Positions 1-47,489 of a DNA stretch of 47,489 bases are shown here, piece after piece (the first letter of the stretch is position 1; each line of letters starts with the position of its first letter). The position numbers and the translations under genes are program-made. This DNA is from Catajapyx aquilonaris. Lineage: Eukaryota. The notes under the pieces were generated by a model. The model searched no databases and was not told the origin of the DNA. It saw only the letters and a program-made list of their open reading frames with translations. The stretch covers positions 62,001 to 109,489 of the forward strand of contig JYFJ02000754.1 of the NCBI GenBank assembly GCA_000934665.2, written 5' to 3'.

Positions 1-1743
1 CATCACTGTCATTTTCACCAATCCTGATCACCAGGGGCTTGACTGCCTCATCTATGGCGACCTCTGCACTCCAACATTTGTCCATCAGCATCTGGACATG
101 CTGGACTTCATTGGCCCACATTTCTGGAGTGATGTGTTTCAGTGCTTCTGCCCACACCTTCTTGGTTTGTGCCTCTCCAAACCCCTCCACTCCACTGTTC
201 TCTGCATAGTACTTCTTGGCCACAGACCACACGAACTCAATCGGATTGAATTGACAATGGTAGGGGGGAAGACGTACCACTTCATGACCTGCTTCCCTGA
301 CCATGTTATCCACAGCGTATTTCTTGTAGCCTTCCTTGTGCATCTGGGCCAGGTGAAGCAGCTCGATGCGGAGAGCATCCTCCGCGAAGGGTATGCGGTG
401 GTCCCTCAGCCAGTCTGCCAGCTGCTTCTTGTTCCATTTGGTGGCAGGGAGAGGTTCATGAAGCATCTGTACAAAATACAACAATGATTAATGTAATGTT
501 GATGGGTGATACCAAACTTATAACAAACTTATCCTTCCGGTAAACAGTTACATTGAGGCGGTGAAACTGACCCTAAAAGTCTAACTTGTGCTCTCTCCCA
601 TGCAAGTCTTTGGACAAGGTGATTATATATTGTGCCATCTACGTACCGAGTGGTATGGAGCATTATCCATGACCAGGAGAGTCCCAGGCTTGAGTTTTGT
701 CAGGAGCTTCTTGAGCCACTCGATGAAGGTGGGTCCATCCATCTGGTCATGGTAATCTTCACTTCGCTTCTTCGTAGTGAAAAGACGTCCAGCATCCTCC
801 ACAAAGCCGTGTTCATTGCCAGCATGAATCACTATGAAGCGAGGTCCGTCTGATGAAGGCCTCTTGATGCAGGATTTGGCAGTTCCATCCTGCCAGGCGT
901 AGGATGATGTTGTATTCATGTGGATCCAGGTTTCATCCATGTAGACGACTGGCCGAGGATTGGGCAGCTTTGCGTTGTTCCTCATTCGCCGGAGAAATGC
1001 AATTCTCTTCTCAGCTATGTCCTGCCTCTCAAGCAGCAACAAGCGGTTGTTCATCCGCTTCCATCTAAAGCCTAGCTTGCGCAGCACCGTACGCAGCGAA
1101 TCCTTTCCCCCAGTGAAGGGCACCTCTGAATTCTTCACGGCTGCAAGGATCTCCTCCATCTTGGTACGCTTTCTCTTCGCGTACATGTCATACACGATCT
1201 GGAAAAATGTGAAATTGTACTAATTGTTGTAAATTTATCAGAGTGAAAGAAAGCTAACTAAATATGGGTCCTTAATGTTTCACCTAGTGCTTGGGTGTAA
1301 ATGAGTAGCCCAATAAGATTACCAGAGGTTGCATGATGCAAATTTTTGTACAGTACATGAGTATAGGAGTGAAGGCAAAACTGGCTCACCTGTCGGATGC
1401 GGCTCAAATCAAAATCATCGAGGTCAGTCTTGGGTGCCATCCTCTTACGCTTCTTCCCTGGTGTGGACCTCTCCTCAGAATCCACACTACGGTAGCGCTT
1501 CTTCATGGTAGACAGGCCCCCTTTGCTCAGGTTGACATCGCTGTCTGCTGCTTGGGTGATGGGAATGATGGGCTCTCCTTCTTCTCCTGGTTCATAAACC
1601 ACTCCACATTCTCGACGATCTTGAACGCCTGCGTACCGATTGCACTCCCGTGGAAGCTGTGAGGTGGGTTGCTGTCTGTCGTCTGGGTTGAGGGCTGGGG
1701 TCACCTGGGCTACGTTGCCGGCTGGGTTGCTGTCGGTGGACAT
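1..1743 (-). CDS. DD82E (Sailor-type, IS630-Tc1-mariner) transposase; three exons 1743-1390, 1198-647, 466-<1; 3' end runs off the window
   Basis: Manual splicing gives one open frame. Intron 1 (1389-1199): RIRQ|GTGAGC...TTTTTCCAG|IVYDMY. Intron 2 (646-467): DNAPYHS|GTACGT...TTTTGTACAG|MLHEPLP. Both are phase 0 and GT-AG. Catalytic motifs are VYMDETW, LVMDNAPYH and RLPPYHCQFNPIE, with exactly 82 residues between the second D and the E. No stop before the window edge. Confidence 0.9.
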
Positions 1744-2164
1744 GACTCGCGTGGCTTGACAAGGGGGGAAGAGGTGGAAGACACGGGGTATGGGACACGA
1801 GATACGGGGGACTAATTTTTCAGGCGGAAGGACACCCAACGGAAAGGTTGCCAGCTACGGATAATTCTTCACAGCTTTTAATCGTTTCCTTGAATTCTTT
1901 AAAAATGGTTAATATCAGATTCGATAGCATGAACTGGTAAATAGTCAATTCAAGCAGGATGCTTCAATGGTTCAAGTGTAGGGCTCAAAATACGTCCCTA
2001 CAGGCGCCAGATATGACGAGGTATGAACACCCCGATCTGGCAACGGAAGCAGGTAGCAGGCAAATCTAAATTTTTTACTGTACAGCGTATTCCCGAAACC
2101 GGCGATTTCTTTTGTACAGTCGAAGGTTCACTCTTATGATCGTCGGACAGTAGCTGAACCAGTG
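1..2164 (-). mobile_element. Sailor/DD82E DNA transposon, 5' part
   Basis: Contains the transposase above. Candidate 5' terminus on minus: TA|CACTGGTTCAGC (TA at 2165-2166), consistent with the TA target duplication of this group. An alternative TA|CAGT end lies at 2080. The partner TIR is outside the window, so the end is unconfirmed. Confidence 0.7.
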
Positions 2165-2389
2165 TACCTCCTCATCAAACTGCATCCCCCCCGTAATTGC
2201 TACCTTGATAATTATTGCTGTTGAGGAGGATGCCCTGGATGGACGGGGCTGTCGCGCTATAGTACTTACTTTTATACACTACCACACAGACTTCACTGCG
2301 AGCAAAGCTGACTGCGGTTGGATGAAGGGAGCGGAAGGGAAAGGGGTGACTTTCATGGAGGAATGGATGTTATTCCGATATAAGAGAGT

Positions 2390-2690
2390 CTACAAATATT
2401 TCTTAATCTTTGAGATCTCGGGATCGTTTCTTTGCCATTCAGAGGTGAGATGACGACTTCCCATCGGAGAGCAGGTAGCCTCAGGCTGGGGAGACCGAGA
2501 CAAAGCGTCAACATGCGTGAGGAGTTTCCCCGGTTGGTATGATATATGGGGGGGAGTATTCCTCTAACAACAAGATCCATCGGGCAAATTTCCCTGTAGG
2601 GTTCCTCATGGACCTGAGGCACCTGAGGGGATTATGGTCCGTGATGATTTCACACTGTCGGCCGTAAATGTATGGGCTAAACGTTTCCTA
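2390..2690 (-). pseudogene. Gypsy LTR-retrotransposon pol fragment (RNase H and linker to integrase)
   Basis: Minus-strand translation with frameshifts: FSPYIYGRQCEIITDHNP / RCLRSMRNPTGKFARWILLLEEY..YQPGKLLTHVDALSRSP / WQRNDPEISKIKKYL. These match the Ty3/Gypsy RNase H motifs TDH, ARW and DALSR. Confidence 0.85.
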
Positions 2691-3261: not shown

Positions 3262-3838
3262 TTAGGCACATGTATTCCAAGTGTTCGGCCCATGACTACA
3301 GATTCGTTCTCCGAGCATCATCTCTACAGGTTCAATGAAATGCATTCCAATCATTTTCAAATAATTAAGTCGACCTGACAGTGACCTCAATCCATCGAAG
3401 GTCACATCATCGGATTTATGAACGAACCCAACGGTCTCCGTCTTGTTTCCTTGGAATGATACGGCTGCGGCTGTTGTCATTGTCATCTGCTTGACGAGGC
3501 TGCCGTGGCTGGTCGGCTACTTTGATGGTTATAATAATGGTTTATTTAACTTGTGGTGAGGCTGGTTCTGTTGTACTTTTGTCAGACGGCTGTGAGACTC
3601 ACGTCATCATGTCAGTAAGAAGGGCTTGAATAATACTTGTGCTGGTTTTATTATACCGTCGAAATGGCACCTCACAAGTTTTTTCTTGGGGATGACCGAA
3701 CCCATCTTCTCTACGTGTAGGGTGTGACTGCAGGACATGGAACAGAAACCTTTCTTCAAACCCCAGGGATTTGAAGGAAATGAAAGTTGCATTGAAAACG
3801 AATGGTCTTCCTATGGGCTGTGGCAGGTATTTAGGCAT
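3262..3838 (-). pseudogene. EnSpm/CMC-like transposase N-terminal remnant
   Basis: TFDGLRSLSGRLNYLKMIGMHFIEPVEMMLGER resembles the F.GL.....R..Y......IEP.E..LG.R segment of animal EnSpm-like transposases. Upstream SFKSL...HVLQSH looks like a decayed C2H2 finger. Adjacent to the CACTC terminus. Confidence 0.5.
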
Positions 3839-4097
3839 AATCTATGCTAAAAGACGGCTGACTAGAGGTCCTCGAATGAAAGGCCTATAATAATTTTATC
3901 CCTGAATGTGGTGTCTCACGTGTACTATGAGTGACGAAGCTTGACAATGCTGGTTATACCTGTAGCAACTATACATTTAGCATATTATGCCAAACTCATG
4001 AGATCTAGTAGACAATGCTGCTTTATCTTTTTTGGGGGTTTTCTCTGAGCTACGTAACTGAATTTAGGTGAAGAAGTAGCAAGATGAAGTCCAGAAA

Positions 4098-4335
4098 CAT
4101 TCCTTCTCATGTAAACGTCGCTTCGTCACTGAAGAGCAGTATTACCTTTCCAGTATGTGGTTACAGGTGGTTATCATGTACTCTGTACTGCAAGGAGACG
4201 GTTAAGAGAGAACTGACTCCTGTGAAAGGATCACCAGTTTGTATCCGCTTATGCCATATGCATCGCACCAGACATTGTACTATAACTTCCCATTACTTAA
4301 CGGAATGTAATGAATCGTATCTCTGCATTTTGGTG
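4098..4335 (+). repeat. Dispersed diverged module; copy at ~7698-7930
   Basis: Shared text such as CTCATGTAAACG, GAAGAGCAGTAT, CCTTTCCAGTATGTG, GTACTCTGTACTGCAA and CAGACATTGTA at both loci in the same orientation. Confidence 0.85.
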
Positions 4336-4384
4336 TGGTGAAGAATGACGTCCTCTGGCGAGATTCTTTGTCTATACCTGCAGC

Positions 4385-4491
4385 TTGGTAGTAGAAAGTA
4401 GTAGAGCTTCGAGCCGTGACAGAAAAAGGGCATTACATTGAATAATAAACATTTAAAATAAACGTAATAAATGAAATTAACAACAAAACAG
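4385..4491 (+). repeat. Dispersed module; copies at ~8565-8673 and ~22855-22895
   Basis: AGAAAG(T/C)AGTAGAGCTTCGAGC at all three loci; ATGAAATTAACAACAAAACAG at the first two. Confidence 0.9.
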
Positions 4492-4519
4492 GCACCGCAC
4501 AACGCTCTTGGCGGATTAG

Positions 4520-4692
4520 CTCACGTCAACTGGAACAGGCATTCCACCAACTTCAGAAAAATTCTCGATCAATTCAGAAAATGTTTTGTAGGGATAGCTG
4601 CAAGACGTATGACTTGCTCAATTAAGCCAGGGTTGATATGATATTCTGACGAATCTCCCTGACATATGATGCACTTTTGCCAGTTGGTTGGG
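4520..4692 (-). pseudogene. Possible Academ-like large transposase N-terminal remnant
   Basis: PTNWQKCIICQGDSSEYHINP ... IENFSEVGGMPVPVDV resembles the T.W..CIICQ / F..LG.MP..D motif I associate with large invertebrate DNA-transposon proteins. Superfamily assignment is from memory. Confidence 0.35.
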
Positions 4693-6639
4693 CTCCCAAC
4701 GTGATGACCGTGTCCTGCTTAGCCAATGGGAAGGAGTGTCTCAAGGCACCTGATGTAGCAATAAGGTTGACCATTTTGAGATATTTTTTAAAAAACTATC
4801 ACTCTTGTGGAATGATGCGGGGTGTACCTTTGCGAAGTTTTCCATGATGAGCTACAGAAGCATTCGTCCCTTACCACTTTACTCATTCAGTCTTCCATGC
4901 TTTTCATGCTGTCGTCAGGCTGATTGGAAGGCCACTTGTTAAATGTCTCATTCATTTAGCACAAGGAACAATTTCTTCAATGAATGTTAATAAGTCGTCC
5001 TTTTAAATTTATTCATGACGTTCATGCAAAGCTTATGTCCTGTGAGAGTGAACAGCCCCGCTTAAAAGGAGCCTAAGATTCTTTGCCTTCAGTCTTAGGT
5101 GGCATAAGCAACCTTTGATTAGGGAAAAGTGTTAGTTGGCATTGTTATAAAGTGAAGTGTCCTTGTAACAGTTGTGGAAATAGGCCTAATATGTTTGTAG
5201 CAATTCAAACATCAGACGTGGTCATCAGCAGTTGGCTACATCACCGGATGGTAGCTGTTTGATTTTCTGTAGGTCTTTGTTATGGTGTCCTATATACAAG
5301 TATTTCGTTCACCATATGTCGTGATTGGTCATTATATCAAATTTTCAGAAGGAATATCGAAATCAATCCAACCAGTGTTTATAAGGTCAGACGAAACTTA
5401 ACTTCATCAGTTATCGTATTGCCTTTGTGGATCTTTTTTTGTGGTCAAGCTACCAACTTATCCAGCTTAGAACCAATATGATGGTTGAGTATAGATTTCT
5501 TATTGACTGAGCAACCTTATTTTTAACCAAGTAAGCAAAAACACAAAAAGCTCAAATTGTGGTCGGCGAGATAATATTAAGCCGTAGGTATGTGACATCT
5601 TTTCTCCTTTCGTCTTTCCAATGACAAAATCTGAACCATTATTATCAACTTGCAGTCAAAGGTCACCAGCATCTCATGGTCTCGTGGTGATGACAGAAGT
5701 GACAATAATTAATCTATCATTCTGCCATGAAATCACAACCTTACGTATGCAATTGTGCCCCCTTTTGCATGAGGGCTTGAACAATGCCTATACCCTTTAT
5801 TGAGTAACCATAACCAAGCGCTATACCTTCCTCTGATGATGACTCAATAATTCAAAACAATGCTTATTGTGTTTATATCTGGTTTTGATTCTTCTGTGTT
5901 TCAACTGGATATGACAAGTGATTATTTTTTTAAATATTTACATGTTAATGCCATGTAGTCGTATCATAACATAACTTTTCATAGCTGCATATAGCGGCAC
6001 TAGATTGTTTTTTGTGCTGTCACTTTTATTTTTAAAGGCCTCGGGAGGGAACTGTGGGGTCACCCAGTACAGTGATGGTTCTAACTGAATCCATAATACC
6101 CTATTGTAAGGTTGTTCAATTTATTTATCGCCCTGGTGGGCTGGTGTTGCAGTCTCATTGTTATAAATATTGATTATCGAGTTAACTGGTATTGTTATCA
6201 TTTAAATGAGAAAGAAGGGTCCATGCCCAGGTAGTAAATTTAAAACTGGTTATAATGACTGCATGTTCTCCTACATAATGCCATCCAGGACAGTTACTAG
6301 GAACTTACCAGTAGTGTGTAACATTTTAAATAATATCTACAATACTGGACAACTCCTCCAATAATTGTACGGCAGTCTGTGTATTTTATTGTATCTCTCA
6401 CGTTCTCCATGCATTTCACATAATTGAAGGGATAATAGCGTATATTGAGTGCACCTACACAAAAGCTTACTTCATTTGGTCTATTCCCCAAAAGGTATTA
6501 TGGACTTATTATCTTGAAACAATCAACAATTGAAATCACAATGATGACATGTCCCAAGCTCAGTTCCTGATTGGATCTGTAGTTATAAATAGTTTTTAGG
6601 TCAGTTTCATACTGTGGGGTAACCATTTCCATCCCGGAT

Positions 6640-6971
6640 TTTGTTCATGTTCATCGCTCATGTTGTAACTTGTAATCCTCTCTGTTAAGATTTTATTTGG
6701 GCAATTATTTAACATTGCTTGATATGCCTTGGCTGAAAGGTCTTGAGGTGAATTTTATTGACAGGAAGACAAGCCATGTGTCTGTTTATGCAAATCTCAC
6801 TGGGCAGAGGAGGTATGATGACCTCTTCGTCACTCTGCAGTGTTTAGTGAACATGGAAGTCAGTCATTCAAAAGTGAATTCCCTTCTTTTATATTATCCT
6901 CCACATAACCCGTCTGAATGAGACGGTTTAAGAGAGGATTGGCCGTAATGAAATGACCAGTAGTTTGTATG
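6640..6971 (+). repeat. Dispersed module; copy at ~29765-30095
   Basis: GCTGAAAGGTCTTGAGGTGA, CTGCAGTGTTTAGTGAACATGGA and TCCTCCACATAACCCG are collinear at both loci. Confidence 0.9.
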
Positions 6972-7304
6972 TACAGGTGCTTATCCAATATGTATGCCTT
7001 AAGTGTATTATGACTATTACGTTACGGGACGTAATAAATGATATCAAGTCATCTGGTGATCTAAAATGCACTCACAAAAAACATGTATGGCATTTCATCA
7101 TTCACATGTCCAAGAATTTGGCTCCATTAAAATTAATGGTAATTGGGCAAGCATATCTATTATTTTCTCGCGAGCCATGCATGACCCAGGATTGAAACTG
7201 AACATATTCAATCTTGTACGTGTCACAACTCCTGTCACCAAATGTGGCTGCTCTTATGCAAATACATCACTAATTTTTGGGGGTCTAAACACTTGGACAT
7301 GTTA

Positions 7305-7720
7305 CTGGGACATAACAGCATCCACCCTGTCAATATTCTTTTGTCTCTTTAAAAGACACCAAGTGCATGTGTCTAATAGCACTTCATATTTGAAATCGTG
7401 TAAGTTAATTGACCTATTAAACTCATTTCCAGATGGGATATCCAGGAAATAATGTGAGGTTCAGATGTTGGCGAACCTGGAGGTGAAAGTGTGGTGCTAT
7501 GTCATGCTGCGCAGAATGTGACATTTTCCATGAATTCTGGCAGTAGCTCTTGTTGGAACAGTCCTTATGTGTTGGTATAAGGTTTGTGGGGAACCATACA
7601 AACTGCGTCAGTAAATAATCATCAACAATACCTGTTCATATGTTCACTTCTTTCACTGGGGTTTTTCTTCACCCCGCAGGTGCGGTTTCTGGAATTAAAC
7701 ATTCGCTCTCATGTAAACGT
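7305..7720 (+). repeat. Dispersed two-part module; copy at ~18555-19045
   Basis: AGCATCCACCCTGTCA, TTTGTCTCTTTAAAAGACACCAAGTGCATGTGTCTAA, CCAGGAAATAATGTGAGGT and TTTCTGGAATTAAA are collinear at both loci; the middle sections differ. Confidence 0.9.
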
Positions 7721-7879
7721 TGCTCCGTAAGTGAAGAGCAGTATGTGCCTTTCCAGTATGTGATTTGTGACGTACTCTGTACTGCAAAGAGAAGGTTGAG
7801 ATAGATCACTAGCTTGTATGTGCCCATGCACAATATGCATGACATCAGACATTGTATCATATATATTATTACTTCCCAT

Positions 7880-8130
7880 TACGTACCGGGACGTAATCAC
7901 GCGGAACTGCTTCTCGCTCTGGTGACGCATGACATCGCGTCGTTCTCTCTGTCAGTATCCTATGCATTCTCTATCTGATTTGTCGGGTTTTGCGTTGTGG
8001 TATTTTATTTCTACTTGTCCATGTGCTCGTCATAAGAATGTGCTCTGAAATTTTGTGTCTGAATTTTTGCAGAAAATGACGTGGTTCAACCATAAGTGAC
8101 ACACACTCACTATTGTGCGCGTAGTGTGAC
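7880..8130 (+). repeat. Dispersed module; copy at ~30308-30555
   Basis: TCTCGCTCTGGTGA, ATGTGCTCTGAA, AAATGACGTG and CCATAAG are collinear at both loci. Confidence 0.75.
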
Positions 8131-8759
8131 CTATATTTGACACACAGACAAGTTCCCCTCGCCAGTTGTTGTTGCATTTGCCTTGAAATAATGCGCCACT
8201 CAAACGTCCTCTTGGAGTTTCTGGATGTTGTAATTACAACCTTCTATCTCCCGTTCTCTTTGTAATGCAAAAAATGCAGCCTCTTCATTGAGAGACTTGA
8301 GATTTTAATCCCAAAATGTGTATGTGTGCATTTTCAGCTCGAATGGGCTACCATAAGTGGAGAAAAATGAGAATTTTAAAAACTTTTCATATAATTATGT
8401 GCTGAATGAAGGTAGGGTGTGTGTAAATTTTGGTACGGAAGACATTGCAGCAAATTTCCCTTCCCTCCCGCCAGAAAATGCCACGAGTGAGACCGGTGGT
8501 GATGTTGTGTAATTATAGACTGACTTACAGGTCATGTTGTCCTCTGTATTAATCCTCTCTTGCAGCTCTAGCAGAAAGCAGTAGAGCTTCGAGCCGTGAT
8601 AGAAGGGCATTCCTACCCGTATATAACGAACATTTTTAAATAAAACCTAATGAATGAAATTAACAACAAAACAGAAACTAATAATATATTACATGTCGAT
8701 GGCACAGATATTGCAGAGAGTTTCAATACTGCAATATTTAAATCGTACTTGCAGAATGT

Positions 8760-9010
8760 CTATTTGGCCTACGCTTGATTTGACCCTGTATTTTACCTGC
8801 TTTATCTGCTGAATGTATGGGAATATTGAGATATCCATTGGAATCATGTTTCTAAGTATGACTTCCCCTTATATGAGCAGCTGTAATACTGATTAGTTTG
8901 TCTCAACGCCACCCTAGTTTGCTTACGCCTGTGTATGTTGATTTCTGACCCTTCCATAATCTCCGATTGGGGCGAGGTCTCCGATCTGTTGTCTTGTATT
9001 GATGCGTTTG
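8760..9010 (+). repeat. Dispersed module; copies at ~19405-19705 and ~35965-36345
   Basis: GATTGGGGC(G/A)AGGTCTCCG and CTAGTT..TTAC.CCTGTGT occur in all three copies; ATTTGGCCTACG.TTGATTTGACCCT in the first and third. Confidence 0.9.
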
Positions 9011-9079
9011 GCATCGGATCAGCATACGCCGCATAATCCCAATTTTATTGCTGTTAGGTGACCTCATTGTGCTCTCCTC

Positions 9080-9655
9080 AGCAGTCACACCACGGTGTAA
9101 CGTCTTGATGGGAATCTTCCTGTGCTGATATGCACACTAAATGTGGCATCACAGTCATATTGCTGGTTATGCTTTAATTTGTTGCATAATATTAACTTAC
9201 TGAAATGATGCTTAGAAGGTCAAAGTTCACTGGGCAATGCATACATGTGTCTGTGTGTGTATGTGTGTGTGGGTTTTCTTGAAGTGATGTGTATGATACA
9301 TCGTTTGTCGCTCAAAGAGACTGATAAGGGATTGGGAAGGGAAAAGTGACTGTTTGCGAATTTCAGCAGCAGATGTTGCTGACAAACCCCTCTAGTCTTA
9401 CACGTTCTTCTTTGGTGAGGCGGAATAGTGGAAGGACTGCCGTGCATTGATGCGATTCTTGAGTGCTGCCAAAACAATTAGTTTAGTCTTGGTGTTGTGT
9501 CACATCCTTTATCTTAACTGTGTTCGGCGCCTCGATTTGCTCCGCTGAATTCCTGGTAAGCAGTTTCCTTATGATGGTGGGCGTGTGGCCTTTTTAAAGT
9601 TTAACCCAGTCTGGCTTATTAAGAGTGTTTTGTCCACCACAAATGATTTAAGGCA
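9080..9655 (+). repeat. Dispersed collinear block; copy at ~37260-38146 with extra intervening sequence
   Basis: CAGTCACACC.CGGTGT, CTCAAAGAGA, CGGAATAGTGGAAGG, TGCATTGATGCGATTCTTGAGTGCTGCCAAA, TCCGCTGAATTCCTGGTAA and CCTTTTTAAAGTTTAACCCAG are collinear. Confidence 0.9.
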
Positions 9656-10294
9656 GAGCAGAAAGAGGACTGCTGCGCTTTGGAAGGATGACAAATCTGT
9701 TGGGTTTTCATGACAACCACAAAGAATTGTGATCATGAGAACTTCCTGCTATGAGCACACTTCTTCATACCTTATATCCCACCGATAGCATCCCCTCCTG
9801 TTATGAGTAAGGAGGACAGCTACATGGATGATCAACATGTCGCTCTCAACCCGGCAAAAGCGCCCAGCAATGACCTGACATGCACATTCGTCAATAACTT
9901 CAAATCAGAAACACTTGGGTGTGTAACAATCATCAAGAAATCTGCATCATATTTAAGCCGGATCTGGTGCCTTCGGCATGTTCGGGTACGTGAATTCATT
10001 TCTGGTTCAATCTCTGATTGGCTACATCCAGAGCAGTCGCTCATTCTGAAGTCCTAGGCGGAAAAGTTCTCTTTATAAGTCGTCTGTGGCTTTGTGCTGT
10101 AGGTTTCTGTGTAGCTTATTACCGTGCTCATGTCGAAACCCTGCTGAGATGAACTCATTTGTCTGTGTGGGGAGAGGGGACACTGGGGGGTCCGGTATGA
10201 GTATGTCCATCCACACTCTGTCGAAATCAGCCATTACTTCTATTATGTCAGAATCTAACGTGGCGATGGCTGGTGGTGTCTCTCTCCTGGGATA

Positions 10295-13224: not shown

Positions 13225-13285
13225 TCGCCATAAACCTTGCGCCAAAACGCACTGGTGAATGGATCATCTCTATCCAACACTATGG
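13225..13285 (-). pseudogene. Gypsy integrase core fragment
   Basis: AIVLDRDDPFTSAFWRKVY resembles the integrase IVSDRD..FTS.FW motif that carries the second catalytic D. Confidence 0.6.
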
Positions 13286-36600: not shown

Positions 36601-38344
36601 CGTACTGTGTGATGATCCATTGACGCCAACAATGAAGGCTGCAGAAATGGTGCAGCGATGGGGTATTTTTCATGTTGACCTGATACCTTATGAAATTCAC
36701 AATATTTTGCATTTTATTGTAGGCTATTATTTAAACATGGCGATAATAATATGCCTCTTAGTCATGTTCCATCCAAGTCGGTGTGCATCCTTTCTCATTC
36801 TTGTTTCATGCGGTATGCCAATTATTATTATCTTTAATTGGACGAAACCTAAGCCGTGTAGAATAGTTGGATTCTGTATTTGGTTGCAGTTTACTTCTTG
36901 TCTGCAGTTATTCGTAAGTGGAACGAAACTCAATACATCGGGAGTTGCTACACCTGGAGCGTTTCTGCCTTGGCTATTTCGCACGTCTTGTTGCGGAAAT
37001 TTATGGATGGGATCGAGGTGATGTCCGTAACAAGTATTTGTCAAGATAGACACTTGCAAGTGCATGCAACTGAACATCTTGTGGTCCCTGTGCATGTGCA
37101 GGACATAGTATGAAAAGCTGCTCTTAATATTAATTTTGGCATGATTCTGTACCAATTATAAAATGCATTGAATTAATGTGTAATTCCAATGTATTTCGAC
37201 GGTCTAATCCCTAGTGCGTCTTGGGCAGGTGTTCTTCTTTTCGGAAGTATTTCGCTCTCAACAGTCACACCGCGGTGTCATTTTTTGATCGGATGCAATC
37301 GACCTGTGCACTCCGTAGCTCTCGTAATGCGCACGCGAAATGCGGCATCACCTCTTGCTGGTTAAGCTGTAATTTGTTGCATGTGTCAACCTTCTGAAAT
37401 GATGATTAGCACGTCAAAATTAGTCGTCATGTCAGCTTCCATAATGTTAAGAATAATGCTCTAGTCTCCTGACATCCTGAAGTGCACAATTATTAATAAT
37501 TGTCGGAGGTTGTGCTTTCCAATTATGTTACAGCCTTTGATGTCTCTTTAGGACCATAATTATACCGTCCGCGGAAGGTTGGGACAGTCCGCATAATAAT
37601 TTCCTTCTCCTCTTTCTTCTTAGTTCGCTGGGCAACGCATATACATGGATCGGAGTGTGTGAATAGCTACTTGAAGTGATGTATCCAATCCAAAGCATCT
37701 GATGTGAATGATATACCTTATATCACTCAAAGAGATTGTGAAGAGACTGTTTGTGCAATGTTCAGCAGCAGACGTTGCTGGGCAGCTTCTAGTAAGCGTT
37801 TCATACATTCACTTCAAATACCATGACTGCAATAATTAGAGCATGAACTACTAATTTGTTTTGCAGAAGCAGCCTTCAAAGGCCCCTAGTATTATTCTTG
37901 GGTGAGCCGGAATAGTGGAAGGGCTGCTGTGCATTGATGCGATTCTTGAGTGCTGCCAAATCAATTATTTTAGTCTTGGTGTTGTGTATGGAAACGGCCT
38001 CTTACCTCTGTCTTTGGCGCTGCGATTTCCTCCGCTGAATTCCTGGTAATCAGTTGCCTGATGTTGGCGGACGTGTGTCCTTTTTAAAGTTTAACCCAGC
38101 CTGGCTTATTAAGTGTGTTTTGCCCACCATAAATGATTCAGGGCAGGATACAAATATAATATTATTGAAAAACTTAAGTTTGTACCGTGCAGCATGGGCT
38201 GTGGTTTCTTCACTGGTTTCTTTTGTTCCAATAGTGCAATATGTGTCTGTTGCTGATCGGATTGTTTATCGCTTGTTTATTACTGTGTTTTCCGCCATCG
38301 CAAGGACATCAATCCGGGTTTGGATGTTTCCCATTCGGCTATGC

Positions 38345-38410
38345 CTTTCTGCAACTTCCAACCCTTGAATGACGAGTCTTTTGGCAATAGTCGCAAAATA
38401 TGTCACGGGT
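38345..38410 (-). pseudogene. Gag-type CCHC zinc-knuckle fragment
   Basis: DIFCDYCQKTRHSRVGSCRK (C-X2-C-X4-H-X5-C), in a frame not listed in the ORF track. Confidence 0.45.
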
Positions 38411-38756
38411 CGTGTAGTGGATAGGTTGAGGCTGCCCTTTACCACGTCGTGACCTACCAGTGCGCGGACTGGAGTTGAATAACCCGTCACTGTTCCAACT
38501 TGTAGAGTGACCCTGGTATGTCTACAGTATAAAGCTGGATATTGTGTCACCTTTTGACTTATGGTAAACACAGGTTCCCTTGACATTACTTTATTTGGGA
38601 TCACTACTTCGGAGCGTGGTTTCAGTTACACGTGATAAATTCGTACATTAAAGTATACTGTGTATTGTTGGAATTAAATGAATTATACTGATACGCCTGC
38701 CTTTTATCTCGCCCTTGTGGGGCCATATCAAGCGTTGTTATCAGCAATGAAAGTGC

Positions 38757-38850
38757 AGGATTTTTCGAAAGGAAACTCGGATTTATAATATTAGTCTCTA
38801 TTTTGTCCCGATATGTTTCAGGGTTTAATAATATCACAATGGTATGAGTA
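38757..38850 (-). pseudogene. Penelope-like element RT N-terminal fragment
   Basis: TIVILLNPETYRDKIETNIINPSFLSKNP resembles the V..N..DY..K....L......L..DP segment that follows the DKG motif. Confidence 0.4.
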
Positions 38851-40499
38851 AATAAACGACAGGCGTGACCATTTCTCAGTAATTTTCGATATAGTAATAA
38901 ACCAACAGAAATATTGTAATTTCTAAACAACCAAATGCATAGCAGGCCTGCCTCTTCCTCCTTCAGCTCCACTTCCTCCTTCTTTCCAAGCATGGTTTTC
39001 ATCGGTGACAAAACTTCCTCGTCGTATGCGATGAGCATTTATTACAGTGAGATTACCAGTTTATTACGCAATTAGACCGGCGCTACCTGTTATGCATGTG
39101 CAGACGACCCCACATCTGTCGCAGTCTGGAATGAAAATATGAGCGAATGTTAACCCATCCCTTATGGTGCACGGGATACACCACATCTCCTTGAGTTTTT
39201 ATCCTACCAGGCTCGGGTATTTTACGAAATGGGCTTATTATTATTATGTACAACTAATGGTTATGATACTAATTATTTTACATGGTGGTGAGGCAGATAA
39301 AAGTAGACCATTGCATTTGGCTTGCACTCATGAACATTCTATAACTTCAGTAAAAAAAAATAACTATGGACCATTTTCTATGTTATTCAACTAATTTGAA
39401 TATTTTGCAGCCCTTTTTGGGGTAAGAATGTGTGCGACTGAGTCTATGTAGGGATTAGACTTAGATGGCCTGACTTGACCCCATTTAATTTTTCCTGGTG
39501 CTCCTTAGGGATTACAATTGAAATCACGCGATCTATTGTGAGCTCGGTCAACTCTTGTTGCAAAGATGCACTTTGTTGTTTCTTTAGGGTGTTTCTTATT
39601 AGGTTGACAACGTGTGATTCGTTCTCTAATAGATATGTACACCGTACCTTCCTGTGGTGATGACTGGATAATTTAAAATAATGATGATTATTCTTGTTGT
39701 TCCAGTGGGGGTTTTTTATCGGCACCAAACTCATGAACTGCTTGGTGGAGGAAGTAAAGTTAGACCTGTAATGTGCATGTACAACATTTTCTACCTTATG
39801 GCTTGTGTTTATCCCATGCGATCGTATGCGAAGAATCCTACGATGGCAATCAATAGCTGTGCACATGTTAAGCTTGGTGTATTGCATACTAAGGATATTC
39901 GATTCAAGTTAAATTGAGGCAGCATATCACAGCCATTTGTCGTTAATGAGGCTGATCCAAGGTTTTAACAGTCCCCGTCGCCTCTTTTCTCGCCATAATA
40001 CCTCGCTTCCGGCTGTGTGACTTCCGTTCTTCATCTGTGTAGTGGGCGGTCACCTTCCTGCCACCATCCCTCGTGAGTAGGTGAGTATACTGACCGTCTA
40101 AATAGGTCATGTACTTGTTCCTGGACACATTACCTACATGCAGTGTTACTTGGTGGCCTCAGGGGAATCTGGAGAACCCGGTCGACTTTGATGCACACAC
40201 ACGTGTGTACATTATATGATTTTATTTGATTAATTTTGTTCTGAACTACTTTCAGGCGCGGTGTTTCTTTTGGGCGATCAAATTCGTCGTCCTGTTCGCA
40301 TATTAAACCCTTGTCATCCTCCTACTGCATTCATACTTTTTATCTATTTTTAGTTAATTATTTGGTTTTTGGGCAAGCTTAATAATTGCAGAGTTGTTAT
40401 CCGTTACTATACACGAATAAGGTATATCTGCACATCTGGAGGCATGATTCACACTCACGGGTAGTATGTCGTCGTCACATAGGTCTGTGAAACACTTCT

Positions 40500-40860
40500 C
40501 CGGCAGGAAGATATGCGTATGTCGGCGTATTTCCGAAAACAATGTACTTTTCGTATTATTTGATTTCTTGTGTTCTAATGAGCGTTCCAATATTTCACTT
40601 GGATCCTTCCATTCCGTACTATCTCCTTTTCAAATGAAGCCTGTACAACAATAGGTCTTATAGGTTTGGTCTTATTGTGGTATTGTGTTATCGGTTTTAA
40701 AATATTGTAGTGTTCCCAGCATGTCCAGGGCCGTCATTACATTACTCCTGTACGCTGATGCTGATTTCCTGCTCAGTCTGTTGACAGTGTGTACCTTTCT
40801 TCTCTGAGAGATAATAGGGCGGACGGCAGGAATGTCACTCCTCTTGTTACCAGTATTCCC
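40500..40860 (-). pseudogene. Penelope-like element remnant (RT RPIIS motif; possible GIY-YIG tail)
   Basis: KRSDIPAVRPIISQ...TVNRLSR resembles K.DIP.RPI.S. Downstream RSLEHKK...STL..EIRRHTHIF resembles the R..EH....S.L..H...H.F part of the GIY-YIG domain. Confidence 0.4.
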
Positions 40861-43165
40861 CGACAAGATATTAGGATTCTCACTTTTACATTATTATCTG
40901 GTTTACTACTGATGGCTCCACTCTTAGAGTCATCCTTCTTCCACTCCCCAAAACTCCACTCTCACCCCTTGACGTATTTGTATAATTTTGCCCGAGATCT
41001 TGTTAACCACTTTTGTTCCAACTGGACAAATTTAGGTACATTGAGGGAGGAGGAAGCATCATATCCTCTCTATTTATTTTCATTTATTGGCAACACATTA
41101 GCGCACATTCTTCCCTGTGTTGTAAAACAAGTGCGCACATTTAAGGGATTGACCAGATTCTGGGTCATTCAGGTATAATTTCGTAGAGAAGGAGGAGCTC
41201 ATTTTTCATCCTGCATCGGGATGTCAATAAACAATTATGTGAAAAATAATTGGTTTATGTCGAGTCCACTATACTGTAGGAGTGCGATCACGGTTGTTGA
41301 AATTTGCTGTAAGAAGTACTGTTTACGTCTAGTCTGCACGACGATTTGTGCAATATCCTGCATACTTGGATAGTCCTGTCGATTTCTGGTAGAAAAGCAG
41401 TCCAATCCAGCACGAAAAGTTTGTGGACAGATATAAAAAAAGATTCGGGGTTTCGTATCTCAAGTAATTTTGAATGTAATTATTCAACTCTTGCCCTACC
41501 AATCGCACAATCCGCACTAGCAGGACCTTTGTTGAATGACCTTATACTGTTATCTAAGTGAATAGTGTCTGTGCATTTTCCATTTCGAAAGTATTCGCGT
41601 AACTTCAACCAGACACGAAGAGATTTGTTCTTCCCAATTACCCATAGTGCCAAGGATCTGATTCCACTCGATCTCCCCAGACAGATGAAAGGGCATTAAA
41701 ATCACACAATTCGCATATTTTGTTAGATTGCGAACACTGCAAAGGTAGCACGATCTTGTCGGTAATTATTCATCAGATTGGATCCATGAGACCATTGCTG
41801 GCCCTTCACCATCAATCCAGTCCTCCGCATGGGTTTAGGAGACTATTATCGGCCATCTGTCCAATCATCGGTTTGTGTACCAGTTGGACTGTTGACGGCT
41901 TTGTGCTTGTCAGAGAGGCAACGTCGAGACGCTCGTTTTTTAAAAATCGTAGAACTTGGCGTCATACTCCGCAATTCATTTTCCTGCATGCTGTCTGGAA
42001 ATACTTCATTTTGGGATGGGCTTCTTTCAGTTTGATAATTTCCCGATTTCTTTCCCAGCTTATTGCTGATGTGTTTGTGAAAGTGATTTAATTCGCAATA
42101 TCTCTAAACATGGCCGGTGTATGGTTATCGTCGTATTGCAAGTGACTAACGTTGGTATTTTGGGATGTCCTTTAACTGGCATTAAGTCACGTCACGGCAA
42201 AATAGGCGTCATATGACGCATCTTGGTTGAATATCCAGAAACAGAACATGTCATTTGCAGTAGGTTTGCCCATGTGAAGCGAATTCTTCAGACCAATTTG
42301 ATATTTGAATAGAAACGGTCCAAGTCTTGTCGGTGAATGCTTGTAAGTAATTTTTTAAAAAAAAGACCGGCCCAAAATGGCGTGAATAAATCCAAGCCAT
42401 TGCATACGTGTAATACCAAATTCGCCTTAGTATTTTCCTGATCTCGGTTCCACCGCGTTTTGGCTCTGGTTGCACAATCTCACCCCACCTGGTACAATCC
42501 AACCCCTCTTTGCGGTACTTCTTTACTCCTTTGAGGCGGAAATCAGTGTCGCAATCCTGGTCATTCTCTCTGCTGCTGTGCGGCTGCTCCAAACTTTGAT
42601 GGTTTTTCAGGTCCCCATGGCGGAGCGTGTTAATTATGTCATTGTCAAGACGCAAAATGTCTCGCAAAGTTTTTTCCACGACTCTGCGATTAAATAGTCA
42701 AATTTATTGCAATCATAACTTTTGTACATTTTACATATTCGTACTTGAGTAGCGTACTTCCGTGTGGCTCCCTACCAATTCTGACGTCATTTTATTTCAA
42801 TATGTTTGTTTCCTCTCTTCGTTAACATGTAATTCCCAGTTTTCTGGATGATCTTCACCAACCCCGTCTGTCTCGGCCCGCTTCATCAGCGTCTTTTCCA
42901 GCAGATCTTCAAACACCTCAGTCGGGGTGTTAACATGGGTCAATGTGGCGGTCAAATGAGGGGCGTCCCCGGCGGCGCACAGTGGACCGAGAAGCGCATT
43001 TAGGCGGACATGATTCGTAACGTTGATTTCATTGGAAATTAACAACTGACGTGTCCAAATTAACCTAAGAGAAGGTTAGGTTAGGGCAGGGCAGGGCTGG
43101 TAGCTTCCTCAGGGATGTAATTAGAGGGTCGGATGTAATTGAGGCACATATGGAGAAGGTCTGTA

Positions 43166-43440
43166 TTACATAACACGACTAGACGCCTTTCGGGTGTTGA
43201 AGACCCGGAAATGTTTTAGGTCTTTGTGCCTTGATTCTTGGGCTTCTTCTGAAAACATCCCGATAGGGTGCGCCCTGTAAAATAGATGCCCGATGTACAA
43301 GTATTCGGTGCACACTTGGAGGCATAGCATACCAAGGGTAGAGGTCGATGCACTTTTGGAATGTTTCCTTTGCATAAATCTTGGTGATCTCATATGCACT
43401 AGAGAGTGACTCCAAAATGTTGCCGAATCTTTGAATGAGA
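43166..43440 (-). pseudogene. Transib (RAG1-related) transposase C-terminal fragment
   Basis: IQRFGNILESLSS..LYPWYAMPPSVHRILVH..(frameshift)..PIGMFSEEAQESRHKDLKHFRVFNTRK. It carries the H-X4-H zinc ligands and the SEEAQE catalytic-E motif, equivalent to RAG1 HKTLAH and SEGNES. It is cut at 43440 by the LINE tail. Confidence 0.85.
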
Positions 43441-43481
43441 TCTATCAATCTATCAATCTATCAATCAATATTTTTATTTTA

Positions 43482-43506
43482 CCTCCCTGCATCAGGCTCA
43501 GGGAGG
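43482..43506 (-). other. Stem-loop at the LINE 3' end
   Basis: CCTCCCTG (43482-43489) and CAGGGAGG (43499-43506) form an 8-bp stem with a 9-nt loop, immediately upstream of the poly(A) signal and tail. Confidence 0.65.
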
Positions 43507-43656
43507 GACTCCCTCCTTTACATGACCTTTTTTCTTTTCCAAAAGTAATAAATACATACATATTAACCTGGACCAGTTTTTTCCTTGGTGGGAGGGGAAG
43601 GGAACAAATAGAATGATAAAATGGAGAAATGAATAATTGAAGAGGGCTCAGTTACA

Positions 43657-46600
43657 TTATAAGTTTAGGTGCCATTTTGCCACATATTTTAAGAAGAGGA
43701 ACAGTGCTTTGGTGTCACTCTGGGATGGAGCCGCAAAAATCGTAGTAATACTATTTCGAGGAACTAAGGGAAGATTTTGGAGAAATGCGTGCCTTCCTCC
43801 AACGAACATAGGGCATTCGTAGAGGATATGGTACCAATCGTCAGATTCATCCCGATTGCAAAGGCCACAACTTTCTCCTTTATTTATTTTTACTGAGAAG
43901 GCTCCGCCCAGGGGAATCCAAGAGGAATTTGTCCTGAGGCATGCCAACATCCTCGCTATTGAATATGCATTCTGCTCTGTCGTATAGTAAGCCGGGAGGT
44001 ATCGGTGGTTGTCATAAAAAATTACTTAAGATTTGATTTGGACCTTGTTAAACAGTGATAGTCGTTGAGTACCTCGGTATCTAGCATTATTTGGGCAAGT
44101 ATACAATATTTTTGTGTCCAGTCTTGATCATCTTCTGACATAAAGTTTTTTATTGACTGACCATACTCATTTAGACTAGTATCTAATTGTTTTACCCAAT
44201 TATACCTCTGTTTCGGGCTACTTTCCGACAGTAAATGTGACAGTGCTTTTCTAGGTAGTCTGTCGGGCTTCATTTTTGAGAATCGTCTAAAATTTCTTAG
44301 GGCTTGGAGTATTATTTTAATTTTTAGTGGGGGTCGTCCCGTTTCCAGGCGTAAGAGATATCCTGCAGTTCTTGGCCCTGTTGCCAAAAGTTTCCTTATT
44401 GGGTATGTCTGCATTTTTTTAATGTCCTTGAGCAGATTCAATCCCAATATCGGCATTGCGTAAAGCGCAGCCGTGATAATCGTAGAGTCAATATAATTCA
44501 GCTCTGAAGTTATTAGAGGTAGCTTAGCATTCTTTAAAAGGAGTCTGGAAGCGTTAAATTTCGATTTAATGTTTCTCATTTTATCCTCTAGTTCTTTTAG
44601 GAATTGGCCGGAAGAGGAAAAATTAACTCCCAAATATCGGTAGCTAGAAACATTTTCTAGAGTTGTGCCATTTATAATGAATTTATCCGCCACCGCCATC
44701 GGGCCACCTTTCCTAAATATCACGGCCTTTGTTTTTACAGAGTTTAGTTTTAGCTCGTTTTCGTCCAGGTATTTTTGAGTCCAAGTAAGCAATCTTTATA
44801 AATATAATTTATTATCAGCAATCAAAACTATATCGTCAGCAAACAAGAGAGCTTTGAAATCGTATGATACTCCGGGTAGGTGAATGCCCTTGGCCTGATT
44901 TTGGTTTAACCATGGAATTAAATCTTGTAAATATAATGAGAAAAGTAAGGGTGATAGTGGATCGCCTTGCAATACTCCTTTTTCTATGTGGACGTTTAAG
45001 ATTTTTTCCTTTCCCGCAACATGGTGTAGTTTTGCTTTTTGGTAAAAGTCAATTACAGTTGCCAGAAATTTGCCAGACATACCCATTCCTTCAAGTTTTC
45101 GCCATAGATTTGTCCGAGATACGGAATCAAAGGCTTTCGTTAAATCCAAAAAGATTGTGTAAGCTTTTCCCTTGGGCTTACTTAATCGGGAGTGTATAGC
45201 AGTCATAAGAACAAAAATATGATCTTGAGTACCGTAATCTGGGCGGAATGCTGCTTGTTCCTCTGGCATTAATTGTTCAAATAAGGGGATAGAATAAATT
45301 CTTTTTGCAAAGATCCGTGAAAGGAGCTTCGTCAGCGTGCAAATTAGGCTTATCGGACGGAAATTTGCCGGATCGTCTACTTCTCCTTTTTTGTACAAAG
45401 GGACTACTGTTATGTTCGTCCATTCATCTGGTATTTGACATTTATTAGTTACAGCATTTAGTGATGTTACTATTAATTCCTTGAGCTTTGGTCCCGCCTT
45501 GTTCAGTACTATATTTGGAATCCCATCATATCCTGCGGCAGACTTCATATGCAATTTCTTCAGAGCCTGCTCTAGTTCCACAAGAGTAATAGGTCCGTTT
45601 AGGGGGTCGTCAGGCGTTAAGTTTTTCCATGGGCCCAAGTATACCTTATTTGAAGAGGATTCAAAAATAGATTGAAAGTATGATTTCCAAGAATCATCGT
45701 TTATTTCTTTTGCTAGTGCCGGGGGACGTTTCCTAAATTTGTTTATATGTTTCCAGAAGAACTGCGAATTTTTTGGGTTCGCTAAGTTTTTTAGTGTCTC
45801 CTGGAAAAATTCCGTCTTTTTTTTCTCTCGAGCTTCTTTTAATTCTCTCTTGGTTTCGTAATAATTTTGCTTATTTTCGTTTGAAAATTCCTTCTTTAGA
45901 TATTTTAGATATTGTCTACATTTCTTTTTCAAGTCCTTTATCGTTTTGTCTTCCCAGCTGTTTATTTGACAATTTATTTTTGTCGTTTGAGAATTTCGGA
46001 TTTTCATCAGGTCCTTTTTGAGTAAAAATTCCTGTATAAACAATTGCAATAGTTCCGGGTGGTCTTCAATGGTATTATGGTCTAGCTCAGAGACTGCATT
46101 CTCAAGATCCTCTACCCACTCTTTTATATTTAACAGTTTCTTAGTGGTTATATAGCTAAGAAATTCGGGTTTAGTTACTGTGCCCAGAGAGGAAATGTTC
46201 CAGGGGATAATTAGGGTTATTACTATAGGACAGTGATCAGAAATATACGAATTTTCAACTTTAAAGTCTGCGACAAATTCCAAAAGAGAACTCGATACCA
46301 GGGCAAGGTCAACTGTACTTCTTCCTTGTGGCGAAATGTAAGTAAAATCTCCTTCAAGGTCTCCCGGGGTTATTCCGTTCACTACGACAATTGGTGATTC
46401 ATCTAACTTGTTTATCAGTAAATGACCTCGGCTATTCACTTTTTTATCTAAAGCGTTCCGCAGAGTGTACTGGGGGGTATTAACAGAGTAATCACCAATT
46501 CTCGCATTTAGGTCCCCCATGATTAGCGTTGGCTGATTTAAGAAACCACCTAGTTCTAGCTTATTGAAAATTTCTCCTAATAATTTATCGTTTTCATTTG

Positions 46601-47180
46601 CTGGAGGGATATATATAACAATATGGTTCCATGTAAATTGATTGTCCGCTATTTTCAATACAATATAGTATGTTTCACTCATTAATAGTTCGGTTATCAG
46701 TGAAGGGTGGCAAAAAACCGCTATGCCACCTGAGGGGCGACCCTTCAGAAATCTTCTTGTTGCCGGAGTTGAGTATATCGAATTGTTTTTCCAGAAATCT
46801 GTCGTTGGTTTTGTTTCCAGCCACGTTTCAACTACCCCAATTACCTTCAAATTTTTTGGAGTCCTCAAATCGGATGACAGGTCGATTAAATTGGCCCCAT
46901 TTATATTCCACATCATACACCCACATTGAGCTTCAACACTTTTTAAACTGACCTCCAATTTTGGAGGCCCTATTATTGTTGGTTGTCCAGCAATGTTCCA
47001 GAACGAAATGCACACCTGCCTCCTTGACCCATCCTTTTGGCTGGCCTCTAAATTTGAAGGACGTATTGCAACACTATTAATAGGAATGGGCGCACTTTTC
47101 ACACTTTTTACACTTCGGGGGGTTTCTTCATATATAGCCGACGGAACCACACTACCTGACGATTGAGGACACCCAGCTTT
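43657..47180 (-). pseudogene. LINE ORF2: APE endonuclease, reverse transcriptase, CCHC finger; one premature stop and one frameshift
   Basis: Endonuclease: WNING, VETWL, GRPSGG, MGDLNARIG, TVDL, SDHCP. RT: FRPISL, FLDLTKAFDSV, GVLQGDPLSPLLF, LFADD, YRYLGV. C-terminus: LETGRPPL and CGLCN..DDWYHILYECP. In-frame TAA at 44798-44796 (probably from CAA); frameshift near 44030. Start position approximate. Confidence 0.93.
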
Positions 47181-47184
47181 TTTT

Positions 47185-47489
47185 TCACTGCACATTTCCT
47201 TTACCACCCCTCCCCACTTTTTTGTAGAGTTGAACTTGCACTTCTTCCCCAACCTCCTCCTCGTCATCTTCCTCAATGCGGTGGACTTCTACGCCCGCCT
47301 GTGTACTAAGTTCAAAGTTCGTATCCTTTCCGCTATGGTTGGGGGGCTTCTTCTTGGGGTCCGTCTGCTGTCCAGGGGAAGATCTTGGCCGCTTAGCTTG
47401 AGTGCTGCTCGTCGTGGGCACATCTCGGGTAGCGCGCACCACCCTTTCGCCATCCTCCGACAGGACATACCTGACCCCCTCGACGATGA
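47185..47489 (-). CDS. LINE ORF1 C-terminus (partial, open to the window edge)
   Basis: Frame is open from the edge: IVEGVRYVLSEDGERVVRATRDVP...KRPRSSP... to a stop at 47185. IVEG..Y resembles the I.G..Y end of transposase-22-like ORF1 proteins. Lies directly upstream of ORF2. Confidence 0.7.
   Translation of the reverse strand, partial: IVEGVRYVLSEDGERVVRATRDVPTTSSTQAKRPRSSPGQQTDPKKKPPNHSGKDTNFELSTQAGVEVHRIEEDDEEEVGEEVQVQLYKKVGRGGKGNVQ

Follow-up and report, generated by a model that had tools for sequence, protein, structure and literature searches.

Complete co-orientation of transposon remnants and internal repeats in a strand-polarised locus of Catajapyx aquilonaris, a candidate uni-strand piRNA source

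What kind of locus keeps its transposon-derived pieces in a single orientation? We analyzed a stretch of 47,489 nt from Catajapyx aquilonaris (hereafter the window, meaning the whole stretch), for which an initial annotation had proposed a small-RNA immune locus transcribed from the plus strand. The window as a whole (1..47489, +) is a strand-polarised domain within a locus that derives from transposons and extends over 47 kb or more: its plus strand is T-rich throughout, its recognisable transposon remnants all lie on the minus strand, and the copies of its internal repeat families are all co-oriented. Because the polarised domain touches both ends of the window, it must measure 47.5 kb or more. 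Our tentative reading, to which we give somewhat less than an even chance, makes the window a candidate part of a flamenco-like, uni-strand piRNA source locus whose long precursor RNA would have the plus strand as its sense strand.

All stop-to-stop ORFs of at least 50 aa (377, with 188 on the plus and 189 on the minus strand) were scanned against Pfam. Transposon families above the curated Pfam cut-off were identified in 6 of the 189 minus-strand ORFs versus 0 of the 188 plus-strand ORFs, bearing out both the one-strand bias of recognisable pieces and the lack of any convincing plus-strand piece described initially. The 6 ORFs represent 5 separate, unrelated elements, or 6 elements if a weak Gypsy-type integrase C-terminus is counted, and 3 transposon-type matches below the cut-off (HTH_Tnp_1, Integrase_p58_C, and zf-RVT) were also all on the minus strand. 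Among 296 shorter ORFs of 38–49 aa (147 plus, 149 minus), Pfam matched no transposon family on either strand, and a six-frame scan of region 1–9500 with stops read as X added no further Pfam family on either strand. No host protein domain was identified above the Pfam cut-off on either strand among the 673 ORFs of at least 38 aa, in line with the earlier statement that the window holds no host gene. The inventory itself shrank: some 20 pieces from about 10 groups had been named, and Pfam supports the 5 or 6 elements given above, with no support in the window for EnSpm, Penelope-like, Transib, RTE-X, Academ, Merlin, or a LINE ORF1. Likewise, of the many cut-and-paste superfamilies said to be sampled, 3 DDE-type pieces were verified and the remaining family calls were not. 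Pfam-recognisable transposon sequence amounts to ~6.6 kb, or ~14% of the window, as judged by Pfam profiles rather than a species repeat library. A search of the ESM Atlas returned no usable match for the longest unexplained minus-strand ORF (35353–35886) and only scores of 0.76–0.78 for a long plus-strand ORF (41648–42088), and a search for SINE heads by Rfam and tRNA scanning found no tRNA and only a chance-level SCARNA7 match.

Two young elements lie at the ends of the window. A young DDE_3-type (Tc1/mariner-like) transposase gene (2..1854, minus strand), identified by Pfam and tblastn, runs off the window start, and its homology falls into 3 blocks (1578–1381, 1198–641, and 457–2), the last 2 of which are separated by an intron-like gap of ~180 nt. 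Pfam DDE_3 was above the cut-off on the minus-strand ORFs 626–1219 and 2–487, reaching 50 bits when read through, and 7 relatives of 436–495 aa with 36–43% identity, carrying PF27940 and PF13358, gave tblastn matches confined to these 3 minus-strand blocks. At the other end, a near-intact LINE (43440..47489, minus strand) was recognised from its ORFs, Pfam domains, tblastn matches, and a 3' tail of octamer tandem repeats (43440–43466). Its ORF2 (44025–47288) has a single in-frame stop at 44796–44798 and encodes an endonuclease (~46233–46910) and a reverse transcriptase (~44808–45392), with the ORF 44799–47288 matching RVT_1 (E 1.2e-25), Exo_endo_phos_2 (9.3e-12), and Exo_endo_phos (3.5e-7) and the zf-RVT match at 43660–44025 on the same strand staying below the cut-off. 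With 150 LINE proteins as tblastn queries, all 211 HSPs within 43675–47408 lay on the minus strand and no second LINE was found in the window; the only LINE-protein match outside this main copy was marginal (plus strand, 27483–27668, E 0.003 with 150 queries) and lies inside a palindromic MITE. The contig depth of the LINE is 5–10 times that of unique sequence in the source run, and its best relatives among 1.84 billion representative proteins are only 30–37% identical.

The remaining minus-strand pieces are short. An LTR-retrotransposon pol snippet of 59 aa (2511..2687), corresponding to the end of an RNase H domain, matched RT_RNaseH (E 1.2e-9, 38.7 bits versus a cut-off of 24.8), and a protein search found no longer relatives of it. 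A fragment of a DDE-integrase-type element (13572..14268) comprises an rva_4 integrase core at 13572–13760 (E 1.3e-10, 41.7 bits versus a cut-off of 26), for which a PDB sequence search found no relative, and a weak upstream HTH_Tnp_1 match at 13966–14268 (E 0.0025, below the cut-off). The C-terminal part of a PIF/Harbinger-type transposase (33332..33832) was identified by DDE_Tnp_4 (E 1.8e-7, 31.4 bits versus a cut-off of 24.8, profile positions 116–157 of 158), with a weak Plant_tran match, and a possible Gypsy-type integrase C-terminal snippet (32714..32923) is a weak match to Integrase_p58_C (E 0.0016, 19 bits, under the cut-off of 27).

Because the coding pieces number only 5 or 6, with a binomial probability of 0.06 (n = 5) to 0.03 (n = 6) that all would fall on 1 strand, statistical significance rests on a test of repeat orientation. 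Self-alignment of the window identified 36 repeat pairs between different places at E ≤ 0.01, all 36 direct and none inverted, and 5 scoring schemes gave 33–47 pairs, again all direct. A tblastn self-comparison yielded 176 direct and 2 inverted HSPs, both of the latter being the MITE palindrome. In contrast, 20 locally shuffled sequences together produced no direct pair and 2 inverted pairs, and when positions 20001 to the end were flipped in silico, all 20 pairs crossing the boundary became inverted, so the method detects both orientations. The independent comparisons number 33 by strict intervals and 17 after locally colinear matches were collapsed into 23 blocks, all of them direct; with 17–33 comparisons, the probability of this outcome is ~8e-6 or less. 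Pure chance was rejected as an explanation, its probability from the repeats alone being at most 2^-17.

The repeats form 19 intra-window families with 52 intervals spanning 3410..41409, which cover 10,495 bp, or 22% of the window, at 64–92% identity, and every copy within each family is co-oriented with the others. Antisense orientation to the plus strand is demonstrated for the 5 or 6 coding pieces only; for the repeats, what is shown is that copies of the same family agree in orientation. One non-coding interspersed repeat with sharp common ends (28210..28535) has a co-oriented second copy at 31102–31445 with 84% identity, the homology stopping abruptly at matching bases in both copies, and the bin 28156–28822 reaches a depth of 2253 in the source run. 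A MITE-like element (27500..27731) carries 83-nt terminal inverted repeats, with arms at 27500–27582 and 27649–27731 that are 94% complementary, and its very high genomic copy number is seen in a summed contig depth of up to ~15,500 versus ~32 for unique sequence. As a check on mutation asymmetry, its arms offer a sample of only 5 mismatches, of which 2 are T/G-type, 2 A/C-type, and 1 a transversion. In another sequencing run under the same species label, 7 of 30 bins of the window were covered, all at repeats.

Direct copies are also the only product of local duplication and unequal exchange, and the window could on that ground be a non-functional graveyard whose repeats arose largely in this way, its coding remnants sharing a strand by chance, which for 5 or 6 pieces has the binomial probability given above, or through joint duplication of some of them. 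We consider this quite unlikely, although local colinearity is in excess: 18 cases were observed versus a permutation mean of 8 and a maximum of 17, so that the observed value was reached in 0 of 2000 permutations. Region 26732–29460 is colinear with 29211–32104 at an offset of ~2.7 kb, 8751–9656 is colinear with 35953–38146, and matches between 16.5–22.3 kb and 27.7–41.4 kb follow largely the same order when ordered manually. Further, the source run, compared at ≥80% likeness, shows single-copy depth over most of the window, and many families are therefore not shown to be genome-wide. However, the 17 comparisons that remain after colinear matches are collapsed are all direct, and the spacing of repeat pairs is compatible with random placement (KS P 0.12), with no excess of short offsets. 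By eye, ~20 of 29 adjacencies are discordant, the partners of neighboring copies mostly lying far apart. At least 1 family has element-like sharp ends and 1 bin has high genomic depth; the random-like spacings together with the sharp-ended family argue for dispersed insertions over 1 tandem duplication. The coding remnants all lie outside duplicated intervals, so duplication cannot explain their common strand.

Base composition carries the same polarity. AT skew is negative on the plus strand in 23 of 23 2-kb segments and T exceeds A in 87 of 94 500-bp segments, with a mean AT skew of −0.112, so the T-richness noted earlier by eye holds by measurement, and GC skew is positive on the plus strand in 61 of 94 500-bp segments. 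By class, AT skew is −0.131 in Pfam-recognised transposon parts, −0.121 in repeat intervals, and −0.111 in the remainder; local duplication in a graveyard leaves this uniform T>A skew in non-repeat sequence unexplained. Skews of T>A and G>C can mark the sense strand of transcribed regions, and the plus strand may be the transcribed one.

Transcription of the plus strand would equally be expected if a host transcription unit on that strand, unrelated to piRNAs, enclosed the window in a long intron, UTR, or lncRNA, and purifying selection against polyadenylation and splice signals had removed sense transposons and left antisense ones. This account is unlikely in our judgment, yet it carries appreciable weight. 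The sense strand may also acquire T>A and G>C asymmetry through germline transcription, the signs of both skews fit a plus sense strand, and the interior of an intron need not show any exon. LINEs and LTR elements within introns are known to be biased toward the antisense orientation, and the 2 situations would be alike in an orientation bias relative to a transcription unit and in selection against sense insertions (PMC3088655). However, the intronic bias published there is partial, found mainly for LINEs and LTR elements and strongest for them and near exons, and the available text of that study describes no complete co-orientation across all classes over tens of kb (PMC3088655). In the window, DNA-transposon pieces and 19 short non-coding families are co-oriented without exception in the 17–33 comparisons. 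Polyadenylation signals, which such selection should deplete on the sense strand, are not depleted: AATAAA occurs 20 times on the plus strand versus 17.4–27.1 expected under Markov orders 1–3, and 56 times on the minus strand versus 36–49 expected. The source-run contig set totals 256 Mb at a unique depth of ~32, so the genome is probably modest in size and an intronic run of over 47 kb lacking exons would be unusual. No exon-like Pfam match was identified on the plus strand, a result of limited weight because Pfam detects exons poorly.

Complete co-orientation is rarely reached by selection alone, which would favor an orientation-specific insertion process in place of selection, such as insertion coupled to replication or transcription, or serial terminal addition. 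Head-to-tail arrays of telomeric retroelements occur at some chromosome ends. However, the 3 DDE-type cut-and-paste remnants and the LTR snippet belong to elements that do not add to chromosome ends, the window holds no telomeric or other simple repeat array and only 5 tandem repeats, all small, and known replication-linked orientation biases are mild. We regard such a process as highly improbable.

For a uni-strand piRNA source locus, we count the 5 unrelated elements on the minus strand, the 36 direct repeat pairs, and the T>A skew that is uniform across sequence classes. Because unrelated recognisable elements are co-oriented on the minus strand, a plus-strand transcript would be antisense to them. 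Transcription would start from a promoter upstream of position 1 and yield 1 long plus-strand Pol II transcript, to which inserted elements would lie antisense, and this U-rich precursor would be processed into piRNAs complementary to transposon mRNAs. The locus would keep insertions that land in the useful orientation, among them the young LINE and the young DDE_3 element at its two visible ends, and would lose sense ones. Of the immune locus originally proposed, the structural premise stands, with pieces on 1 strand and a co-orientation that extends to non-coding repeats; transcription, its direction, an output of 24–31 nt small RNAs with a 1U bias, and a selective origin of the polarity are what we infer from that structure. 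Against this reading we count the protein-recognisable transposon share (~14%) and the repeat share (22%), which are far below the annotated transposon share of flamenco, and the lack of AATAAA depletion on the plus strand. The complete co-orientation, stricter than in published clusters, together with the excess colinearity hints that some copies are not independent.

In flamenco-like loci, transposon pieces antisense to the cluster transcript are the defining anatomy at the DNA level, and those Drosophila loci chosen for their transposon strand bias that had small-RNA data all yielded piRNAs from one strand (PMC10643416). These loci span 227–1085 kb and are dominated by Gypsy-family LTR elements, and the available text of that report describes their strand bias as driven by Gypsy only, with "most" fragments antisense, not all (PMC10643416). 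The window would resemble them as a trap that retains antisense insertions, with recent insertions beside old fragments (PMC10643416). It differs in that its LTR content is 1 or 2 tiny snippets and its recognisable content mostly DDE transposases and a LINE, its bias is complete, most of its sequence is unclassified, and it is known here from DNA alone. Beyond Drosophila, one-directional piRNA clusters are also common in the mosquito Anopheles gambiae, where these one-strand loci are often euchromatic and do not have to be dominated by LTR elements; they were defined by small-RNA mapping, whereas the window is known by transposon orientation, and high percentages of transposons in 1 orientation are given in the available account only "in some cases" (PMC4662822). 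A more specific proposal, which we consider doubtful, is a broad-specificity trap, that is, a uni-strand piRNA locus in which DNA-transposon snippets, a LINE, LTR pieces, and non-coding repeats would be strictly antisense. Found in an animal lineage that has been little sampled, such a trap would exceed flamenco-like loci, with their reported Gypsy-only bias, both in strictness and in the range of classes it contains.

Very large protein collections contain no close relatives of the window's transposons, the LINE being the measured example, and the comparison of direct with inverted self-similarity, with its shuffle and inversion controls, is database-free and a possible general screen where repeat libraries are lacking. 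If the locus is not a cluster, its complete co-orientation still needs explaining. Should small-RNA data bear the reading out, the window would stand as a piRNA source locus identified solely by the polarity of its DNA. Orientation-selected trapping would then extend beyond retroviral elements to DNA transposons and non-coding repeats, and the young LINE and young DDE transposon at the ends of the window would make it a concrete locus for studying the capture of new insertions.

We searched the 47,489-bp window (~42% G+C, with a single N at 14834) for transposon proteins with a Pfam scan of all stop-to-stop ORFs of at least 50 aa on both strands (n = 377; 188 plus, 189 minus). Matches to transposon families over the curated Pfam cut-off were identified in 6 ORFs, all among the 189 on the minus strand, and none of the 188 plus-strand ORFs passed the cut-off of any transposon family. 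They comprised DDE_3 (2-487 and 626-1219, with both ORFs belonging to 1 element), RT_RNaseH (2511-2687), an rva_4 integrase core (13572-13760), DDE_Tnp_4 (33332-33832), and an endonuclease with a reverse transcriptase (44799-47288). Three sub-threshold transposon-type matches were likewise on the minus strand, namely HTH_Tnp_1 adjoining the integrase core (13966-14268), Integrase_p58_C (32714-32923), and zf-RVT within a LINE (43660-44025). The other weak matches, with E values as high as 0.05, fell short of their cut-offs, came from unrelated families, and occurred on both strands. Among shorter ORFs (38-49 aa; n = 296, 147 plus and 149 minus), Pfam identified no transposon match, and a six-frame read-through Pfam scan of 1-9500 added no further family. 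The one-strand arrangement described in the initial annotation was thus recovered over the Pfam cut-off. Against its count of ~20 pieces, 5 independent elements can be supported, or 6 counting the weak integrase C-terminus, and its EnSpm, Penelope-like, Transib, RTE-X, Academ, Merlin, and LINE ORF1 labels were not found. For the coding pieces alone, the probability of sharing 1 strand is 0.06 to 0.03. A 178-aa minus-strand open frame at 35353-35886, lacking a Pfam or Atlas match, exceeds chance length on that strand (~0.04 expected by rough estimate) and may be a relic of some unclassified element.

Both window ends are occupied by young minus-strand elements, a DDE_3 transposase on the left and a LINE on the right. 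The DDE_3 transposase (2-1578, minus) consists of open reading blocks, extends beyond the window start, and looks nearly intact; by tblastn, 7 relatives (436-495 aa, PF27940 and PF13358) matched only at 1578-1381, 1198-641, and 457-2, on the minus strand. The second and third blocks are separated by ~180 nt where the relatives have only a few residues, suggesting an intron or insertion in the gene. The 2 relatives with names are both from Lepidoptera (41% identity), so the family is widely scattered. The LINE (43440-47489, minus), delimited by ORFs, Pfam, and a tandem-repeat tail, spans ~1088 codons with 1 in-frame stop at 44796-44798 and has a 3' tail of 3.4 copies of an 8-bp unit. With 150 diverse LINE proteins as tblastn queries, all 211 HSPs in 43675-47408 were on the minus strand, and the sole plus-strand match was marginal and lay inside a palindromic MITE-like element. 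The best relatives of the LINE among 1.84 billion representatives were just 30-37% identical, indicating a poorly sampled LINE lineage. The ~40 kb between these end elements are old and for the most part unclassifiable, holding short minus-strand snippets of 3 or 4 further element types along with co-oriented repeat families.

Orientation was analyzed by BLASTN of the window against itself (E ≤ 0.01), excluding the identity hit and the self-palindromes at 27500-27731 and 7099-7307. We identified 36 pairs of similar segments (38-499 bp, 64-92% identical, median 76%), every one direct, that is, in the same relative orientation, and none inverted. Five scoring schemes yielded 33, 35, 35, 36, and 47 pairs, again all direct. 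In 20 shuffled versions of the sequence (100-bp blocks), only 2 pairs appeared overall, both inverted and none direct. When 20001 to the end was inverted in silico, all 20 boundary-crossing pairs became inverted and the other 16 stayed direct, so the method sees both orientations. Comparing the window with itself at the protein level yielded 176 direct HSPs, and the only 2 inverted ones both came from the palindrome. Together the pairs define 52 intervals, grouped in 19 families and amounting to 10,495 bp (22% of the window), which provide 33 independent comparisons of relative orientation. Chance is excluded as the cause of the co-orientation, and some strand-specific process shaped at least 47 kb.

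Dispersed insertions and local duplication both contribute to the repeat pattern. Local colinearity of neighboring matches (18 observed vs. a permutation mean of 8 and maximum of 17 in 2000 permutations), as in 26732-29460 with 29211-32104 and 8751-9656 with 35953-38146, points to a degree of duplication or to long elements held in common. Repeat matches between 16.5-22.3 kb and 27.7-41.4 kb largely keep their order, with the latter stretch ~2 times longer, and this pairing may be an old segmental duplication expanded later by insertions. Other observations indicate that the pattern is largely dispersed. Pair spacings did not differ from random placement within 3.4-41.4 kb (KS P 0.12) and showed no short-offset excess, and partners of adjacent segments were mostly far apart when the match list was inspected by eye. 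Both copies of 1 family (28210-28535 and 31102-31445) end at identical bases, as mobile elements do, and the 3 copies of another derive from an element 500 bp or more in length, each truncated in a different way. Collapsing locally colinear matches left 23 blocks, 22 segments, and 5 connected groups, with 17 of 17 independent comparisons direct (P ~8e-6); the co-orientation is real and statistically strong. A duplicated graveyard of elements combined with chance is an unlikely explanation: local duplication accounts for some of the repeat pattern, but not for the uniform compositional skew or for the single strand shared by the unique coding remnants, none of which lies within duplicated intervals. 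Insertion in a preferred orientation, which would also produce co-oriented elements, seems very improbable.

Depth over 27489-47488 was taken from a 256-Mb contig set, 1 of 4 DNA runs from a single sample that contain the stretch. Unique window parts had depths of ~27-42, and with the size of the set we infer a genome probably of that order or smaller. The bin 28156-28822 reached 2253 and the LINE 160-330 (~5-10 copies), while most other bins were at 1-2 times unique depth, indicating old, diverged sequence. The MITE-like element at 27500-27731, with 83-nt terminal inverted repeats (94% complementary) and a 66-nt core, had a summed contig depth of up to ~15,500 vs. ~32 for unique sequence and thus probably has hundreds of genomic copies; no other part of the window was clearly present in a second run that carries the same species label. 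A weak plus-strand SCARNA7 Rfam match at 9136-9305, inside a repeated element (25.5 bits vs. a gathering score of 65, E 0.031), is probably due to chance. At 25003-25046, a 22-bp unit in perfect tandem (2.0 copies, 100% match) amid old sequence points to minor slippage or duplication that occurred recently.

The T-rich plus strand noted initially was confirmed, with T exceeding A in all 23 2-kb windows and in 87 of the 94 500-bp windows, where AT skew averaged -0.112; G exceeded C in 61 of the 94. AT skew was similar in Pfam-transposon parts (-0.131), repeat intervals (-0.121), and the rest (-0.111), and reached -0.19 on the plus strand of the LINE region. One possible reading is that almost the entire window descends from elements that lie on the minus strand and have an A-rich sense strand; the other is that mutation has been strand-asymmetric throughout the locus. 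The only palindromic element had just 5 arm mismatches, too few to tell the two apart.

These observations are best fitted by a long transcription unit on the plus strand that would retain antisense insertions. Such a unit could belong to a gene on the plus strand, as an intron or lncRNA, which would likewise favor antisense elements, but intronic antisense bias is partial and class-limited (PMC3088655), and poly(A) signals were not depleted on the plus strand (20 AATAAA observed vs. 17-27 expected; on the minus strand they were mildly enriched, 56 vs. 36-49), making this rather unlikely. The proposed anatomy is that of uni-strand piRNA clusters, and one-directional clusters are frequent in Anopheles gambiae (PMC4662822). 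Simple membership among flam-like loci is weakened by the modest density of recognized transposons in the window and by the strand bias of those loci, which is reported for Gypsy elements only (PMC10643416). The initial annotation's piRNA-cluster reading is reasonable but unproven, and we regard the window only tentatively as a uni-strand piRNA source.
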